A stretch of 16,425 bases of DNA from a virus. The notes under the pieces were generated by a model. The model was not told where the DNA came from, did not search any database, and saw only the letters and a program-made list of their open reading frames with translations. Below are positions 1-8,829 of the stretch, piece after piece. The position numbers and the translations under genes are program-made. The stretch lies in the UHGV virus genome UHGV-1570171; one strand, written 5' to 3'. Each line of letters opens with the position of its first letter. Positions within the stretch are counted from its first letter, which is position 1.

Positions 1-45
1 CCAGATATTGAATGGCCTACGCCTCCGGCAGTTCAGGCCAGATGA
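1..45 (+). CDS. 3' end (last 14 codons plus stop) of a second, convergent tail-fibre assembly gene (tfa-prime); 5' part lies left of the window
   Basis: Plus-strand frame 1 from position 1 reads PDIEWPTPPAVQAR then TGA at 43-45. The PD(I/V)xWP motif matches the C-terminus of the minus-strand Tfa (APDVIWPELPEA) and of Tfa-family chaperones generally. The tail-to-tail arrangement matches Mu U/U-prime and e14 tfaP/tfaE. Only 14 codons are visible. Confidence 0.4.
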   Translation, partial: PDIEWPTPPAVQAR

Positions 46-619
46 CATCCGGCGCGGTGCTGGTATCTGTTGCCGTCACCGCGTCAATGTAATCCAGCAC
101 AGCGTTAAGTCTGGTTGTTTCTGCCTGCGTCAGTTTACGTCCGGCCTGCAATTTCAGTTGAATCAGACTGATGGAAGCCATTGCTGCATCAATCAGTGAC
201 TGGCGCTGTGCTTCTGCCGCTTCTACTGCGGCACCGTGTTGTGCCTCAGTATCTGTCACCCATTTTTCACCATCCCATTTATCGTATGGCGTTAACGGGG
301 CGATAGTGGTTGTATTTTCGGGATAGTCGCCTAGTGCTGTGATTTCTTTGGCATCTCCCGTTTCGGTGTTATAGACGATTTCACCGCGATGGTCTGACAC
401 ATATTCCCATGATTTTAAATCCACAGAACGGCAAATTGTATAACCAGCCTTAGATGTACCAGGAGCGTCTAAACAGGAATATGCTGGAATACCGACACCC
501 ACTGCAAGATATTCAGTTGATGCAGAAATATATTCCCGCGTCTCACCATCATAGTTATAGACGGTAATATTCCCCGCCTTCGTGGTAATAAGCTCGCTAT
601 TTAATACGGCGTTATCCAT
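17..619 (-). CDS. tail-fibre assembly protein (Tfa/gpU-like chaperone)
   Basis: 200-aa ORF directly downstream of the fibre gene. ATG at 617-619 overlaps the fibre TAA stop (TAATG). C-terminus ...TSTAPDVIWPELPEA is typical of tail-fibre assembly chaperones. Confidence 0.8.
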   Translation of the reverse strand: MDNAVLNSELITTKAGNITVYNYDGETREYISASTEYLAVGVGIPAYSCLDAPGTSKAGYTICRSVDLKSWEYVSDHRGEIVYNTETGDAKEITALGDYPENTTTIAPLTPYDKWDGEKWVTDTEAQHGAAVEAAEAQRQSLIDAAMASISLIQLKLQAGRKLTQAETTRLNAVLDYIDAVTATDTSTAPDVIWPELPEA

Positions 620-1389
620 TATGCAGCCCTCACGATATAGTTAAATGCAATATTTCGTGGACGGGTTTCACTCCCGCCAGTATTACCGATACTCCCTCGT
701 GAATGAAGTGTCGGTGATGGGATCAGACTCCCTCCTGTATTTGTGGCATCAAGTCCCCGTCCTTGTGTGTATGTTTTTTTGAAAATCGTAGCCAGTTCCC
801 ATTCATCTTTTGTGTCGTAACCATCATTGGCAACAACAATATGGCGGTGTTTTTCCAGCATCCCTGTCTGAATGCTCAATAAAACACGTCCTGCATCAAT
901 ACCGCGCCCGTCATCCCAGCCACGAATAAACTCACCACGTAAATCAGGCAATTTATTTGTCGGATAAGCCTTTGCCAGTTCCGGGTATTCTTCAGCAGAA
1001 AAAGCCGCACCGTTGCATTTCAGCCAGCCTGTTGGCGGTGTGGCTGAAGGCCATGGAACAGGCACACCAACAGGTAATGCAGAGCCTTCTCCCAAACCAA
1101 GGTTTTCGAGAGCCGTTTTCACCGTGCCATCCGATTTGATATCGCCAAACGGATTCTTGCGGCTTAACAGCAGCGCACGAAGCGCGGTAAGCAGCTGGTC
1201 ATGCCGCCCCTTCTCCAGGCTGGCACCGGATGCCTCCACCACGCTGCAGAGTTCTTCCTGCAACATGTCAAAGTAGTCATCATCCAGATCGGTGGCAGGT
1301 GTGCCGGTCTGGGGGTTACCACGGGTAAAACCGTTCTTACCCGCGCCGAACTTATCCTTCTGCGCGGTTTTCGTGTCTATACGATGCAT
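619..1389 (-). CDS. tail fibre protein with C-terminal phage tail-collar domain; N-terminal part is the likely constant region
   Basis: 256-aa ORF with ATG at 1387-1389 and GGAG 8 nt upstream. Collar-domain motifs [24 protein letters not shown] and [19 protein letters not shown] are present. Sits between the Mu gp48-like gene and tfa, as in Mu S-U and e14 stfP-tfaP. Confidence 0.8.
1087..1112. other. putative serine DNA-invertase crossover site (hix/gix/pix/cix family) inside the tail-fibre gene
   Basis: The 26-mer ttctcccaaaccaaggttttcgagag is an imperfect palindrome (half-sites TTCTCCCAAACC / CTCTCGAAAACC around central AA). It matches hixL TTCTTGAAAACCAAGGTTTTTGATAA at 20 of 26 positions as recalled from memory. 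In the fibre reading frame it encodes ALENLGLGE; the Mu gix site, again as recalled, encodes the comparable IQNLGLQE. Confidence 0.55.
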
Positions 1390-1392
1390 GAA

Positions 1393-2028
1393 TTACTCCG
1401 GATATTTAAAAATTACGTAGGTATGCGACGGGCAGAGTTTGTTAAGCACACACTCGACAACGGTGTCGCCCCAGATACGCAGTGCGGAATCACAGGGATC
1501 GCCACATGTCATCCAGGTGGTGTTGGTGGCGGCTGGCATGTTGCCCTGCCAGTAATACCGCCCTTCCCGACCGGCACAGGGGGCGTGTTTTGCCCCCTGC
1601 CAGTAATACCGCCATTCCGGCGCATTCACAGCGTCAGTGCAGGCTGATGAGCAGGTGAACGTGCTTTTGTCGTATCGCGTGATGGTAGCGTCTGGTCTGC
1701 CCAGGGCAGCAAGCTGTGCAAGGTAAAAATCCTCATTGATGCCGCCCGCCAGGTTAACCTTCGCATCCAGTCGTTGCTGACGCTGGCGAAGGGTCTGTGT
1801 CCCTGCGGGAATACATTCATCCGGCAGGCCGCACAGACGCTCCCAGCGGTTTATCAGTTCGGTGGTGGTGCGCGGATCCAGCTCCCGCATCAGGGCATCC
1901 GCACGCTGATGAACGCGGGTTAATGACGGTGCCGCACCGGCAATCGCCGGATCGCTGGCTGACCACGCCGGACCGGGGGGCAACAGTGCCGACAACAGAC
2001 GGATGTAATCATCGTTTGTCACGTCCAT
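1393..2028 (-). CDS. Mu gp48 / E. coli YmfQ-like tail protein (DUF2313 family)
   Basis: 211-aa ORF whose stop overlaps the fibre RBS region. Cys-rich C-terminal half. Position between the baseplate J-like gene and the fibre gene is as in Mu and e14 (ymfQ). Family assignment is by recollection and synteny. Confidence 0.7.
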
Positions 2029-3077
2029 GAAATCGTCCCCAGAACCGCCAGTTCATTTTTTGCAATGGAGATATTGTCTGCCGGTGCAAGCAACTGATGG
2101 CTGTATTCCCCGTTCGCACCGGAAATCGCCTCACTGATACGCGACACCTTCAGTTCTCCCTGCGGATAACCATCACGCAGCAGGAACGAACGCAACTCCG
2201 CGGTGATGGCAGCCCGTATTTCCGGTGTATCCGGCGTCACGCGGATATGAAAATCCACCGTATGTGCCACCGGCCTGAACACATACAAGTCAGAGCCTGC
2301 CACCGGGGCCAGTGGCCCGATATGTTGTCTTGCCGCCGTTTCCGTTGATTCTTCCGGAATGGGATTAATCAGGTCACTGCTGGCAATCATCACACCGACA
2401 GTTCCCGTTCCCATCCAGTGACGGTATGTCCATGCGCGGGTAATGCCGGGTACTTCTTTAGCCCAGACGACATAGTCCCCGTCAGCCCCGCCCTGCGGCG
2501 TCCAGTAATACCGCTCAATGACGCGGGCGCGCCACGTTTCCAGATCTTCAGTATCGAATCCGCCAGTCAGGGTATCTGCAACACCGGAAGACGGCAGACC
2601 ATTCACCGGCGTGACCAGGATTAATGCCGTACCGTCGTCAGCGTTACCGACCGCGCCTGTAGTTGAGCAAGTGATCGGCACACGCAGGACACCACCGGAG
2701 CTGGTTGCATCGGCAGTTGCCGTGTACTGAACCAGGTCATCGCGCTGAATCACGCTCCCGGCAGTCACCTTCAGGCCATCGCTGACACCTTCCCAGCGCA
2801 TATACCCGCTGGCAGCCGTGGCCCCCTTGCGCGGACACCGTTTCATCGCAGCATGTCGCGCCAGCCAGGACTCATCGCACAGGTCAGGCAGCATATTCAT
2901 TGCCAGATAATCGATGTACCCGTAGACCGTATGCAGCGCCGCCGCATACACCTTTGCCCGCACGTCTTCATCCATGCGCCGAAGCGTGTCGCTGACGTCC
3001 AGCCTGGCGAATAAATCGTTACGGAGCATACTGATATTTTCTGCCAGCGTCGGGCGCTGAAATTCACTGTCCGCCAT
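2019..3077 (-). CDS. baseplate J-like protein (Mu gp47 / P2 gpJ family)
   Basis: 352-aa ORF; 3' end overlaps the next gene by 10 nt and 5' end overlaps the gp46-like gene. Size and position match baseplate wedge protein J in Mu-type tails. Confidence 0.8.
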
Positions 3078-4037: not shown

Positions 4038-5116
4038 CAGAACGGGTCCTCCTGTACTCTGGCTTTTTTCTTTTTCCGCGCGCCGGGATCTTCGGGTTCA
4101 GGCAGATAAGCATCAGGCGGGCCGACACGGATTTCCGTCAGGGTGCCGTTCTGGTCCTGAGTAAACGTGACTTCCGAGACAAGCAGTTCGGTATTGTCGA
4201 AACCACAGACCGGATCGAAGACAATCACCCGCTGGTTGGGCTGCCACAGCGTACCGTTACCCTGTCGCCAGCCCTGCACCACATAGGTGGTTTCATCCGT
4301 CCGCGCCGCCCGTTGTCGGGCTTCAAAGTCAGCACGCGCAATACAGCCTGCCCCCGTAGCCTGCCCTGTCTGCCTGATATACATCGGACGGTAACGGGCA
4401 ATAAATGCGTCCTCTGTGCGGGCCCGCAGCGCGGTGGTGGTGGCCTCACCGAAATCATCGTCGTTTCCGGCACGCTGCCCCGCCACCTGGTAAACTGAAA
4501 ACCGCTCCCGGATACTCTTCTCCGTATCACAGGAAAGGATGTTTTCCCCAAGTACCAGCGCGGTATGTGCCCGCGTTGAGCCAATACCGCCAATCACCAG
4601 CCTGCCGTGCGGATCGTCATAAGCCAGCGCCTGCTGCTGACCGAGTATTTTGTTGATTACCTCAATCACCGTTTCACCGTGATCAGGCTGAACATCAGGA
4701 ATAACACCCGACGGCGCACCGCTGTTCACCACCTCAATGCCGAAAGGCGCAGCAAGCGCCTGCGCAATCTGCACCAGCGAGCGTCCGTTAAACTGTGTCG
4801 GTTCGGCTGCACAGTCAATCAGGTCAGCGGTCAGACTGCGTCCGGCAATACCGGTGCTGACCGAACGGGCATCGTAACGAACGGGAGTCGCCTCCACCCA
4901 GCCGGTGATCACCAGCTCATCACCAATCAGCACTTCCACTTTTGAACCGTTTTTAATGCGCGGCTGAAGCGTGGTGATACCCTCATCTCCCGGCCACTGG
5001 CGAGTGATCTCCACACTGAAATCCCGCGCCAGCCGTTCAATACCGGCACCGATACGCACCGATGTCCAGCCATTCCACTCCCGGCCATTTACCCGTAGCG
5101 TGACATTGTCGTTCAT
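4037..5116 (-). CDS. tail/baseplate hub protein, late control D family (Mu gp44 / P2 gpD-like)
   Basis: 359-aa ORF immediately after the gp43-like gene. Acidic, Lys-rich C-terminus. Size and order match Mu gp44. Confidence 0.75.
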   Translation of the reverse strand: MNDNVTLRVNGREWNGWTSVRIGAGIERLARDFSVEITRQWPGDEGITTLQPRIKNGSKVEVLIGDELVITGWVEATPVRYDARSVSTGIAGRSLTADLIDCAAEPTQFNGRSLVQIAQALAAPFGIEVVNSGAPSGVIPDVQPDHGETVIEVINKILGQQQALAYDDPHGRLVIGGIGSTRAHTALVLGENILSCDTEKSIRERFSVYQVAGQRAGNDDDFGEATTTALRARTEDAFIARYRPMYIRQTGQATGAGCIARADFEARQRAARTDETTYVVQGWRQGNGTLWQPNQRVIVFDPVCGFDNTELLVSEVTFTQDQNGTLTEIRVGPPDAYLPEPEDPGARKKKKARVQEDPF

Positions 5117-6489
5117 TGCACTGGCACCTTCAGAGGGATCACCGGCACAAAGCCGGGATGCGTAATGGCATTACGCCGGATAATGTCCGCGTCACGCGCC
5201 GCGTTATCAAACCAGGTCGCCGCCAGCACCAGCGCGGGTAAAACCTCATCCGGCGTGCGCTGAATGATCCGTGCAGACTGTTCAAGGCGCGTGTTGATAT
5301 CCGCATTCAGATCTGCTTTCACCCGGCGCAGCGCCAGAAACAGCGCATCACTGGTTGTACGGGACAACTCCTTATCAATTGCCGTATTCAGTGTGTCGCG
5401 AATGTCGGTCAGTTCTTCCCACGTTGGCAGGTCAACCGTGTTTTTCACCGCCGGTGCATTGTTCAGTGCCGGATGCGTGACAGAAGGCCAGCCGGTGCTC
5501 TGCGCGGGTGTTGTTGACTGCCCCACTGTGGCATTCTGCATCACCGCGGAAGTTGTGGGCGCAGGCAATCGTGTGACGGCATACGCCGCTTCGCTGATTG
5601 CGGTCGTACGAAGGGTGCTGGCAACCACGTTACGCTGCTGCGTCGCCGTGGCGGTGGTTTTACTGTCCGTTTTCCAGACGCCGCGCGGTTGCAGATCGCT
5701 GCCGAGGCTGACACCGGAAAGCGTTTTGATCATGGTGACCAGGTCGCTGGCGTTACCATAAAGGCGTTTCCCGGTACGCCACATTTTCTGCACCTGCTCA
5801 ACGAAATTTTTGCCTGACGATGGCGGCGGCAGAAGTACCGAGATATCCCCCTGCAACAGCCTGGCGGCATCCGATACGGCAGAATCCACCACTTTCATCG
5901 CATCAGAAACATACCCAAGCATTGTGCTGGCATTACCGACGACGTCGTTCTGCACAAAATCTGCCACGCCATCGATACTGAAACCACTGAAGCTGTCACT
6001 GATGCAGTCATCCAGTGCAGAACAGGATGACATCAGCGTCTGCGCCGTCGCCGCACCTGAAGTGGGGTAAGAGAGTTCTCCCGCTTCGACAAACTTCAGG
6101 TCAAAGCGGACAATACGCCCTTCACTCTTCGATGTGCTGACCCGAACTTCCCCGTCAACACAGACTTTCAGCTCACCGTAAGTCGGATGGACAAGCGTGC
6201 CGGGACCGGGTTTATTCAGCGCGTCAATCAGGCGATCGCGCTGGTCAAAGCAGTCATCGCCCACCACATAAGCCGTGATAGACGGGCGGAAAGTGACTTT
6301 TCCCAGATCTTCGGTATAGGGCTTGTCGCGGTTCGGATATTCGTGTGTTTCCACACGGCGACCGGTTCCCGCACTTTCTTCTTCAACCTTAAACGGCACG
6401 CCGCGAAATGACGCGTCCTGAAGTCTGTCACGCCAGCCTGAAGACGACGAAAGTAATGAAGGTCGGGAGGGAAATGAGGATAAATCCAT
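5113..6489 (-). CDS. Mu gp43-like tail protein (DNA circularisation protein N-terminal domain family)
   Basis: 458-aa ORF with ATG at 6487-6489 and GAGGT 8 nt upstream. N-terminal WRDRLQDASFRGVPFKVEEESAGTGRRVETHEYPNRDKPYTEDLG resembles the Mu gpP N-domain. Follows the tape measure gene as in Mu. Confidence 0.8.
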   Translation of the reverse strand: MDLSSFPSRPSLLSSSSGWRDRLQDASFRGVPFKVEEESAGTGRRVETHEYPNRDKPYTEDLGKVTFRPSITAYVVGDDCFDQRDRLIDALNKPGPGTLVHPTYGELKVCVDGEVRVSTSKSEGRIVRFDLKFVEAGELSYPTSGAATAQTLMSSCSALDDCISDSFSGFSIDGVADFVQNDVVGNASTMLGYVSDAMKVVDSAVSDAARLLQGDISVLLPPPSSGKNFVEQVQKMWRTGKRLYGNASDLVTMIKTLSGVSLGSDLQPRGVWKTDSKTTATATQQRNVVASTLRTTAISEAAYAVTRLPAPTTSAVMQNATVGQSTTPAQSTGWPSVTHPALNNAPAVKNTVDLPTWEELTDIRDTLNTAIDKELSRTTSDALFLALRRVKADLNADINTRLEQSARIIQRTPDEVLPALVLAATWFDNAARDADIIRRNAITHPGFVPVIPLKVPVQ

Positions 6490-6513: not shown

Positions 6514-8421
6514 TTATCGTGGAAAACGAAAAGGGGAATACCCCACATCGTGCGTGATTTTCATCAGGGGATCGGCTTTGCCCGGTACATCAATTATCTT
6601 CATACCTGGCGGAGCATTCTCGAACGTGACTTTCAGCTCGCTGTGCTGTGTCATGGAAGAAGATGGATTCAACAGCGGAACATTGGGTTTGTACTGACTC
6701 AGGCTGGCCTGATACTGCTCGTACTCTTTACGATCAAAAAAAGGCGTCCAGTCTGAAGCCAGAAACAGCCCTTTATTATCCAGCCAGTTAACCGTATCTT
6801 CAGGAACAACACTTTCCAGAGTATCTTTAACCGGCTCATACATCAGGGTTCCCCAAAAACCATATACCCCGGCCTTCCCGATAAAGCCGCGGCCTTTCCC
6901 CATCAATCCCGTTTCTGCCGATACCTTCCCCAGCGTACGCATCTCTCTGGTCACTGCGGTAATGGATTTGGTAACGTCAGCAACCCATTTGGTTGCCATA
7001 AACAGGGCAATCGCTTTCAGAACAGTTTCCCATCCCCCCATCACCTGCGCCGTTTCATCTACCACGTGCCAGACTTTTTTTATGACAGGACCTACGGTTT
7101 CCCAGTTATCAATAATGAGGTAAGCGCCACCAACCAGAAGAGCAATCAGCCCCTTAGCAGGCGTCATATTCATCACACCGCCGAGAACTTTCATGATTCT
7201 GGACAAAGAGCCTGCAGCGGCCCCCACTGTCAGTAAAGCCAGACCGATTTTAGCAATGGTCTTAACGAGCTCCGGGTTTTCACGGACAAACGTTCTCACT
7301 TCCTCAAGGAGCGGTTTTACCGCTTCAAGACCATCATTAACCTCAGGAAGAAACGTTTCCCCCAGAGTGGAAGAAATGGCATCAAGTTGATTTTGCAGAA
7401 GTAAAAGCTGGTTTTCCGTCGTCGCTGCCCTCGAAGCATATTCCTTCTGCATCGAACTGCCATACTGCTGGGAATCCGCAACCCGCCTGAAGTTGGTACG
7501 CAACAAATCAAGGTTAGTCAGCAGAGGTGCTATCGCGCCCAGAGACTCTTTCCCGAACAGGGCATTCAGCACAGCTGCCTGTTTTTCTTTAGGCACTTTA
7601 GCCATCGCATCCAGTACAGACAGCATGGTTCCCCGGGCATCTTTCTGCATATCAGCAGCTAATTTCTTCGGATTGATCCGCAGAAAACGTAATGCCTGTT
7701 TCTGCGATTTTGTCGCGGAATTTCCCGCGGTCAGGGAAAGCATGAAGTTCTTGATCCCTGTGGCGGCAATTTCTGACTCCACGCCCATCCCGGCAATGGT
7801 TGCCCCCATTGCCGCGATTTCGCCGGAAGCCACACCTGCAACACCACCTAAAGGACCAATACGCGTAACAATATCGGAGATTTTCTTCGCATTCGCCGGG
7901 CCGGTATTACCAAGGTAGTTGATTTTGTCAGCCAGCCCGGCCACTTCATCCTGCGTCATATTAAACGCAGTACGCCACTGGGCCATCATCTGCCCGGACT
8001 CTTCAGCCGTGGTATCAAAGGCCACGCCCATCTTCACCGCATCAGTGGCAAACTGCATCAGTTCATCACGTGCAATCCCGGCCTGACCGCCAGCCGCCAC
8101 AATTTCCGCGATCCCGTCTGCAGACATGGGAAGCTCAGTAGACAAAGCGCGTACCTGCTCCGTCATGGCCTTAAACGCATCCGGCGTATCCAGACCGTCC
8201 ACCACTTTGCGGACATCAGCCATCTTCGATTCAAGGGTGATGGCTGATTTTACAGGGAGTGCCAGTGCCCCCATTATTGCAGTACCCGCCCCGGCAGCGC
8301 CCAGAGCAAGGCTGGAGACTTCTTTCTGAAACCCCTTAAGCTGACGCTGCATACCTTTAAGCGGGCCGGACAGCCTGTCAACGGCGGTGATGATGGCTTT
8401 CAGCTGAAAATTATCAGCCAT
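6514..8421 (-). CDS. tail tape measure protein
   Basis: 635-aa ORF with ATG at 8419-8421. Ala/Gly-rich, predicted helical, with hydrophobic Gly-rich segments typical of tape measure proteins. Sits between the chaperone and baseplate genes. Confidence 0.9.
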   Translation of the reverse strand: MADNFQLKAIITAVDRLSGPLKGMQRQLKGFQKEVSSLALGAAGAGTAIMGALALPVKSAITLESKMADVRKVVDGLDTPDAFKAMTEQVRALSTELPMSADGIAEIVAAGGQAGIARDELMQFATDAVKMGVAFDTTAEESGQMMAQWRTAFNMTQDEVAGLADKINYLGNTGPANAKKISDIVTRIGPLGGVAGVASGEIAAMGATIAGMGVESEIAATGIKNFMLSLTAGNSATKSQKQALRFLRINPKKLAADMQKDARGTMLSVLDAMAKVPKEKQAAVLNALFGKESLGAIAPLLTNLDLLRTNFRRVADSQQYGSSMQKEYASRAATTENQLLLLQNQLDAISSTLGETFLPEVNDGLEAVKPLLEEVRTFVRENPELVKTIAKIGLALLTVGAAAGSLSRIMKVLGGVMNMTPAKGLIALLVGGAYLIIDNWETVGPVIKKVWHVVDETAQVMGGWETVLKAIALFMATKWVADVTKSITAVTREMRTLGKVSAETGLMGKGRGFIGKAGVYGFWGTLMYEPVKDTLESVVPEDTVNWLDNKGLFLASDWTPFFDRKEYEQYQASLSQYKPNVPLLNPSSSMTQHSELKVTFENAPPGMKIIDVPGKADPLMKITHDVGYSPFRFPR

Positions 8422-8829
8422 GCTTCATCTCCTCATTTATACGGACGGCCTCTGCCTCCAGATCAGCAAAGTGGGAAATAGCCGTCCGGCGAAGTTCAAG
8501 GGGGTTTAATTTCCAGAACCACGCGACATTGTAGAATCGCTTCCGGAGGTCTCTTCCGTCTCCAAGCCGGTAAAAAAACGCATTACAATCATGCCTGCCT
8601 TGAAAATATCCAGCTTCGTCATCTGCGCTGCAGACGAGCGCGGGATCCCGGCCAGAAGCGGGATATATTTCAGCGCCACCTGACTGTCCATTTTCATACC
8701 ACCATCAGGCGAAACAGAGAAAGGGAACCCCAGCGCCTCAATCTCGTCATACGTAGGCTCACGTATTTCCAGCACATGCAGTGTTTCTTTGTGGGCGATG
8801 ATCGGTTTTTTAAGTACAAGCTCAATCAC
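8414..8829 (-). CDS. putative -1 frameshift fusion product of the tail assembly chaperone (gpGT / P2 E+E-prime-like)
   Basis: Coding-strand run of seven T (plus-strand A7 at 8572-8578) sits in codons CGT TTT TTT ACC. Slipping -1 there opens a frame reading YRLGDGRDLRKRFYNVAWFWKLNPLELRRTAISHFADLEAEAVRINEEMKHG. That frame ends at a TGA (8414-8416) overlapping the tape measure ATG, so it fills the otherwise non-coding 84-nt gap. Confidence 0.45.
8506..8829 (-). CDS. tail assembly chaperone (lambda gpG / P2 gpE-like), zero-frame product
   Basis: 107-aa ORF between tube and tape measure genes. GTG start at 8827-8829 overlaps the tube TGA (GTGA), with AAGGGG about 9 nt upstream. Ends ...MRFFTGLETEETSGSDSTMSRGSGN. 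Confidence 0.7.
   Translation of the reverse strand: MIELVLKKPIIAHKETLHVLEIREPTYDEIEALGFPFSVSPDGGMKMDSQVALKYIPLLAGIPRSSAAQMTKLDIFKAGMIVMRFFTGLETEETSGSDSTMSRGSGN

Follow-up and report, generated by a model that had tools for sequence, protein, structure and literature searches.

Site-specific inversion in the Hin and Gin systems is carried out by an invertasome, in which invertase dimers at two sites assemble with a Fis-bound enhancer, cut the 2-bp cores, rotate and religate. In known Din-family systems the Fis-dependent enhancer acts in cis from within the 5′ portion of the invertase gene. Hin switches a promoter rather than a coding junction, and the G segment of Mu (3 kb) and the C segment of P1 (4.2 kb) are larger than the segment type described here. 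In Mu and P1, a constant fibre N-terminus is combined with alternative tips, each of which has its own chaperone (PMC12529663), and orientation-dependent adsorption specificity has been established for both phages (cited in PMC12529663).

The cryptic prophage e14 of Escherichia coli K-12 contains an invertible P segment with pixL, pixR and the invertase PinE (Plasterk and van de Putte 1985, cited in PMC4272514). The P segment is 1797 bp long, has the inverted repeat CCTTCTCCCAAACCAA on both flanks and has been shown experimentally to be inverted by PinE and PinQ, and the fusion of the StfP head with the StfE tip has been named StfP2 (PMC12529663). Both orientations occur side by side in clonal K-12 cultures (PMC4272514). 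The function of e14 inversion was unclear before the report of a role in defence in PMC12529663 itself.

The locus described here shares with Mu gix/Gin, P1 cix/Cin and Salmonella Hin/hix the 12-2-12 site design and, as judged from the match of its relatives' invertase to Gin structures, the invertase family, whereas the site sequence and the fibre proteins of these systems are unlike those of the locus. The likeness to e14 extends to the site, the fibre and the genes that accompany it, as detailed below.

A pixL-type site in the tail-fibre gene

The stretch of DNA analysed, referred to as the window, is a complete metagenome contig of 16,425 nt (ENA ERZ1742063, NODE_335_length_16425), with all of its genes on the minus strand. 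The head genes comprise a terminase fragment, portal, prohead protease, major capsid, connector and head-completion genes, and the tail genes comprise sheath, tube, tape measure, DNA circulation, gpP/gp44, gp45, gp46, baseplate J and gp48/YmfQ, after which come the fibre and tfa genes. To judge from its gene content, the contig is of the HK97-like head and Mu-like tail layout found in phage SfV and in the remnant e14. In e14, which is decayed, only a pseudogenised baseplate gene (jayE) remains upstream of ymfQ, whereas in the contig the head module and the Mu-like tail module are both intact. Over window 1–2100, the best complete E. coli genomes are 96–97% identical, and matching places number a median of 2 and up to 10 per E. 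coli genome. The features at the left end of the window that are discussed below are as follows.

1..45, plus strand: 3′-terminal portion of a second, convergent tfa′ gene, truncated at the contig edge, with 14 codons and the stop codon remaining
17..619, minus strand: tail-fibre assembly gene of the TfaE type, 200 aa, belonging with the StfE-type tip, in the presumed invertible segment
619..1086, minus strand: variable 3′ portion of the fibre gene, encoding an StfE-type tip that contains the Collar domain, in the presumed invertible segment
1087..1112, plus strand: pixL-type crossover site, 26 bp, matching published pixL at 26/26 positions, single copy in the window
1113..1389, minus strand: constant 5′ part of the fibre gene, codons 1–92, with 97% identity to K-12 StfP over residues 1–105

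A first-pass annotation of the sequence had described a hix/gix-like invertase site at 1087–1112, lying in frame in the fibre gene. The site is real and unique: at a tolerance of 3 mismatches, the 26-mer TTCTCCCAAACCAAGGTTTTCGAGAG on the plus strand was the sole match in the window, and a match was absent from all 200 shuffled sequences that preserved the dinucleotide composition. Its core AAACCNNGGTTT taken alone is not significant, with about 0.46 chance matches expected in the window. The 26-mer has the 12-2-12 layout, with the core dinucleotide AA at 1099–1100 and half-sites that agree at 9 of 12 positions, and the repeat CCTTCTCCCAAACCAA known from e14 corresponds to window 1085–1100. As proposed, the site is read in frame, from position 2 of codon 93 to position 3 of codon 101 of the 256-aa ORF at 619–1389 (minus strand), where it encodes ALENLGLGE, with the AA core falling in codon 97.

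Comparison with the reference crossover sites of Din-family invertases (Table 3 of PMC3241671) assigned the site more closely than the hix/gix-like label had done. It is identical to pixL of e14 (26/26) and agrees with pixR at 21/26 positions, compared with 20/26 for each of hixL, cixL and cixR, 18/26 for gix and a range of 16–20/26 over the hix, gix and cix sites. The same 26-mer lies inside stfP/ycfK of e14 in K-12 MG1655 (L003 4779–4804), where the inverted partner TTCTCCCAAACCAACGTTTATGAAAA, 1.8 kb from pixL, adjoins pinE. Judged by this identity, the window site is the known e14-type pixL, the crossover site of the Pin DNA invertase.

Constant and variable parts of the fibre locus

Domains were called from Pfam and from matches to solved structures. 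The Collar domain (PF07484, E 1.9e-15) occupies fibre residues 108–155, which places it in the C-terminal part as first annotated, and the product of the 200-aa tfa gene contains Caudo_TAP (PF02413, E 9e-33) and is 87% identical to K-12 TfaE. An NCBIfam scan gave no match for the fibre, tfa and gp48 proteins and only sub-threshold serine-recombinase matches for Pin of the relatives. Fibre residues 96–163 are exactly those of the K-12 stfE fragment, so that the first part of the tip is identical to its e14 counterpart, and the tip is divergent beyond. The divergence from the K-12 stfE fragment is strong at about residues 180–240 (window 619–850), the receptor-binding end of the tip, and the flanks are identical or conserved. 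This pattern suggests that the receptor-binding region may vary within one cassette type.

The position at which the two fibre parts meet is indicated by the similarity to other phages. SfV, SfI, SfII and SfIV match the window only over 1086–2100, with about 97% nucleotide identity that runs from the site rightwards through gp48 and baseplate J. P2-like (Fels-2-type) phages, including pro483, 500465-1, Klebsiella Kp48xx and others, match only from position 1 to 1100–1111, with about 89–90% identity over the tip and tfaE cassette, which ends at the site. These homology breakpoints, at 1086 and at 1100–1111, mark the site as the constant/variable junction of the fibre gene, in line with the first reading of the sequence. 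The division of the fibre into two parts at the site also held, whereas the N-terminal part is longer than the roughly 90 aa first proposed: the constant part and the site together make up a shared N-terminus of 101 residues. The P2-like prophages have invertases with 85–89% identity to Pin, and their constant fibre part and whole virion module belong to another phage family. Sharing of the cassette up to the site therefore implies that such cassettes are exchanged between phage families at the crossover site.

In the window, an StfP-type constant head is joined to an StfE-type tip, followed by the 87% identical TfaE, which means that the contig shows the flipped state with respect to the MG1655 reference. 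The remaining gene of the cassette is visible only in part. Translation of window 1–45 on the plus strand gives PDIEWPTPPAVQAR*, exactly the residues with which K-12 TfaP ends, and this stretch matches at 45/45 nt the sequences L004, L007, L010 and L011, in which the whole tfa′ is present; the SfV sequence at this position is unrelated. At the left end of the contig, the 3′ ends of tfa′ and tfaE share 29 nt. By its position, tfa′ would serve the alternative fibre tip. Its presence at window 1–45 indicates that the contig reaches the point where tfa and tfa′ meet tail to tail, as is typical of invertible cassettes, and hence that the assembly broke inside the invertible segment rather than at the crossover site. 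The break was probably caused by conserved tfa 3′ ends, which recur among prophages.

Some proteins encoded further to the right in the window differ in length from their homologues. The gp48/YmfQ homologue (ORF 1393–2028, minus strand) has a 51-nt in-frame insertion at 1544–1594 compared with E. coli ymfQ and SfV orf20, flanked by a 19-nt direct repeat CCCTGCCAGTAATACCGCC at 1544–1562 and 1595–1613; its product has 211 aa compared with 194, and this exact protein is encoded only by this contig in the collection. Compared with the closest relatives, the tape measure (6514–8421, minus strand) has 635 aa instead of 610–611, the DNA circulation protein (5113–6489, minus strand) 458 instead of 442, and the tail assembly chaperone ORF (8506–8829, minus strand) 107 instead of 89.

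Partner site, invertase and inversion in relatives

A second copy or inverted partner of the 26-mer was absent from the 16,425-nt window at up to 3 mismatches. The lack of a partner site and an invertase in the window is explained by the contig ending inside the segment: it stops 16 nt beyond the tfaE stop codon, about 0.8 kb short of the position of the partner site in relatives. The first-pass annotation had placed both elements to the left of the fibre gene, and this prediction was borne out in relatives. Among the matches listed, we examined 8 contigs with an identical fibre; twelve more similar places lie outside this count. In all 8, a tfa gene product of 200–202 aa is accompanied by a Resolvase/HTH_7 protein of 184–187 aa, with domains PF00239 and PF02796, and exactly one inverted site, beginning TTCTCCCAAACCAA, lies 1842–1866 bp from pixL. 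In 7 of these 8 contigs, the segment also contains an inverted 145-aa tfa′ and an inverted Gp53-like_C fragment, in place of which the remaining one (L006) has an unassigned 115-aa ORF. When all StfE-type-fibre relatives scanned were considered (L001, L002 and L004–L011), one inverted partner was found at about 1.85–1.9 kb from pixL in 10/10, and an inverted partner is likewise present in L015 and L016.

The invertase of these relatives is a close homologue of PinE. In the close E. coli relatives (96–97% identity over window 1–2100), pinE is annotated at the invertase position; the Pin protein of L004 is 96% identical to K-12 PinE and scores E ~1e-95 against the catalytic domain of Gin in structures 3uj3 and 4m6f. 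A composite query of cassette and pin retrieved 361 genomes with the arrangement, a set that takes in P2-like prophages and is thus not usable as a fraction of cassettes that adjoin pin. In some E. coli genomes (H133), no pinE is linked to the match with tfaE and the tip, which has about 95% identity. From the relatives, we infer that the contig's own prophage still has pixR and pin, and the left continuation of the contig is expected to hold the remainder of tfa′, a piece of fibre tip, a site of the form TTCTCCCAAACCAACGTTTA... and a gene of some 555 bp with about 95% identity to pinE.

Variation among the relatives was seen at the outer side of the segment. In L007 (12120–12145) and L011 (7198–7223), the partner sites are TTCTCCCAAACCAACCTTTCAAATAT and TTCTCCCAAACCAACCTTTGAAATAT, in which the outer half is unlike pixR and the inner half and core are conserved; both have a 187-aa invertase and occupy another integration site, adjoining dinI and an integrase. 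The prophage end just beyond pin (L004–L010, L001 and L002) carries defence-type cargo that varies among relatives, for example an LEM-3-like GIY-YIG protein or EcoRII with a cytosine methylase, and McrA lies beyond pin in K-12 and in phage vB_EcoM-689R6.

Both orientations of the segment, for which a search had been suggested at the outset, were found in relatives. Complete E. coli genomes with at least 80% coverage show the flipped junction in 70 cases and the window-type junction in 75, and in a series of near-identical E. coli isolates from cattle, the locus occupies one chromosomal position and is found in either state. Over 7968 nt, the deposited sequences of strain 119 (L015) and strain 113 (L016) disagree at 1401 positions; once the 1891-bp stretch from one site centre to the other is inverted in silico, the number of mismatches falls to 0. 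This exact flip shows that inversion has taken place at this site in a close relative. The length of 1891 bp in relatives compares with 1797 bp in e14. An in-silico flip of the same 1891 bp in L001 produced an in-frame fibre of 220 aa with a gp53-like tip, and the alternative 220-aa fibre is annotated as such in strain 119, so that the fibre is in frame in both orientations. The gp53-like tip of the closest relatives' alternative cassette is only 26% identical to the StfP tip of e14.

A probable two-state fibre switch and its alternatives

Considering the identity of the site together with the arrangement in relatives, we estimate at about 90% the probability that 1087–1112 is the pixL site of a Pin-type fibre switch, operated by a Din-family small serine recombinase, in a myovirus prophage of the SfV/e14 type whose host is E. 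coli or a close relative. In such a switch, the fixed fibre part (codons 1–101, with the site at its end) would anchor the fibre to the Mu-like baseplate, and the flippable segment of about 1.9 kb would comprise everything to the left of the core dinucleotide, in the order StfE-type tip, tfaE chaperone gene, convergent tfa′ and alternative tip fragment. Pin, encoded just past the segment, would pair pixL with an inverted pixR-like site, cut both sites at the central AA, and rotate and rejoin the strands. Inversion would bring the alternative tip and its chaperone into place, in frame with the same N-terminus; in the state captured by the contig, the StfE-type tip and tfaE would be expressed, which is the flipped state relative to MG1655. 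The cleavage chemistry and the need for Fis and an enhancer would be expected to apply to Pin by analogy with Hin and Gin, and the two tips may give different host ranges, as suggested by the analogy with Mu and P1.

The main role of the switch in a lysogen could be host defence rather than phage host range, exerted by a short pin-proximal ORF that, in the orientation captured by the contig, would be fused to the unused tip in the manner of StfE2. In e14, P-segment inversion creates StfE2, which reduces T2 adsorption (PMC12529663), and an ORF annotated in the relatives has its start 25 nt outside pixR and continues into the tip that happens to adjoin, which gives it a length of 136 aa in strain 113 and of 172 aa in strain 119. 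The low identity of the relatives' alternative tip to the StfP tip of K-12 speaks against a role like that in e14, and the complete head and tail module of the window prophage makes a role in the virion fibre the simpler reading. We consider defence as the main role unlikely. Similarly doubtful is a dual purpose in lysogens of this intact SfV/e14-like phage, with the StfE-type tip serving as the virion fibre and, in the same orientation, a cell-associated chimera of leader and gp53-like tip blocking receptors against other phages, as StfE2 of e14 is reported to do against T2. If true, one inversion would set both the phage host range and the host defence.

The locus could also be a frozen relic, in which pixR, pin or both have been lost, the 26-mer survives only as coding sequence for ALENLGLGE, and the fibre no longer switches. 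A precedent exists in SfV, which carries the complete and identical 26-mer in its fibre gene (L013 5002–5027) with no partner site and no invertase within about 5 kb on either side; a single gp53-like fibre tip and one tfa are followed by a terminator and gtr genes, and the window itself lacks a partner site and an invertase. SfV, apparently a derivative of the switch locked in the alternative orientation, implies that the presence of the site alone is no proof of a working switch. The tip on which SfV is fixed is, however, the gp53-like and not the StfE type, all 8 contigs with the identical StfE-type fibre among the matches listed have both the partner site and Pin, and the left end of the window is identical over 45/45 nt to the convergent tfa′ in relatives that have the complete cassette and unrelated to the SfV sequence at this point. 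Because of the StfE-type tip, the full switch in every identical-fibre contig examined and the tfa′ match, a relic is rated as quite improbable. A chance near-palindrome in a coding region, unrelated to recombination, for which the expected frequency of the core alone would leave room, is refuted by the 26/26 identity to pixL, the 0/200 shuffles even at 3 mismatches, the homology breakpoints at the site and the exact flip between site centres in near-identical isolates, and its probability is negligible.

With the Pin-type switch as the preferred reading, the feature itself is ordinary: its 26 bp exactly match a site known since 1985, and neither the recombinase family nor the locus, which is annotated in many E. 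coli genomes, is new. The result mainly shows that a recombinase site can be recognised from raw sequence. For the annotation of such prophages, the fibre and tfa genes of the contig are best described as one state of a two-state locus, and assemblies may show either orientation. For the phages, the crossover site marks where fibre-tip cassettes pass between SfV-like and P2-like families.
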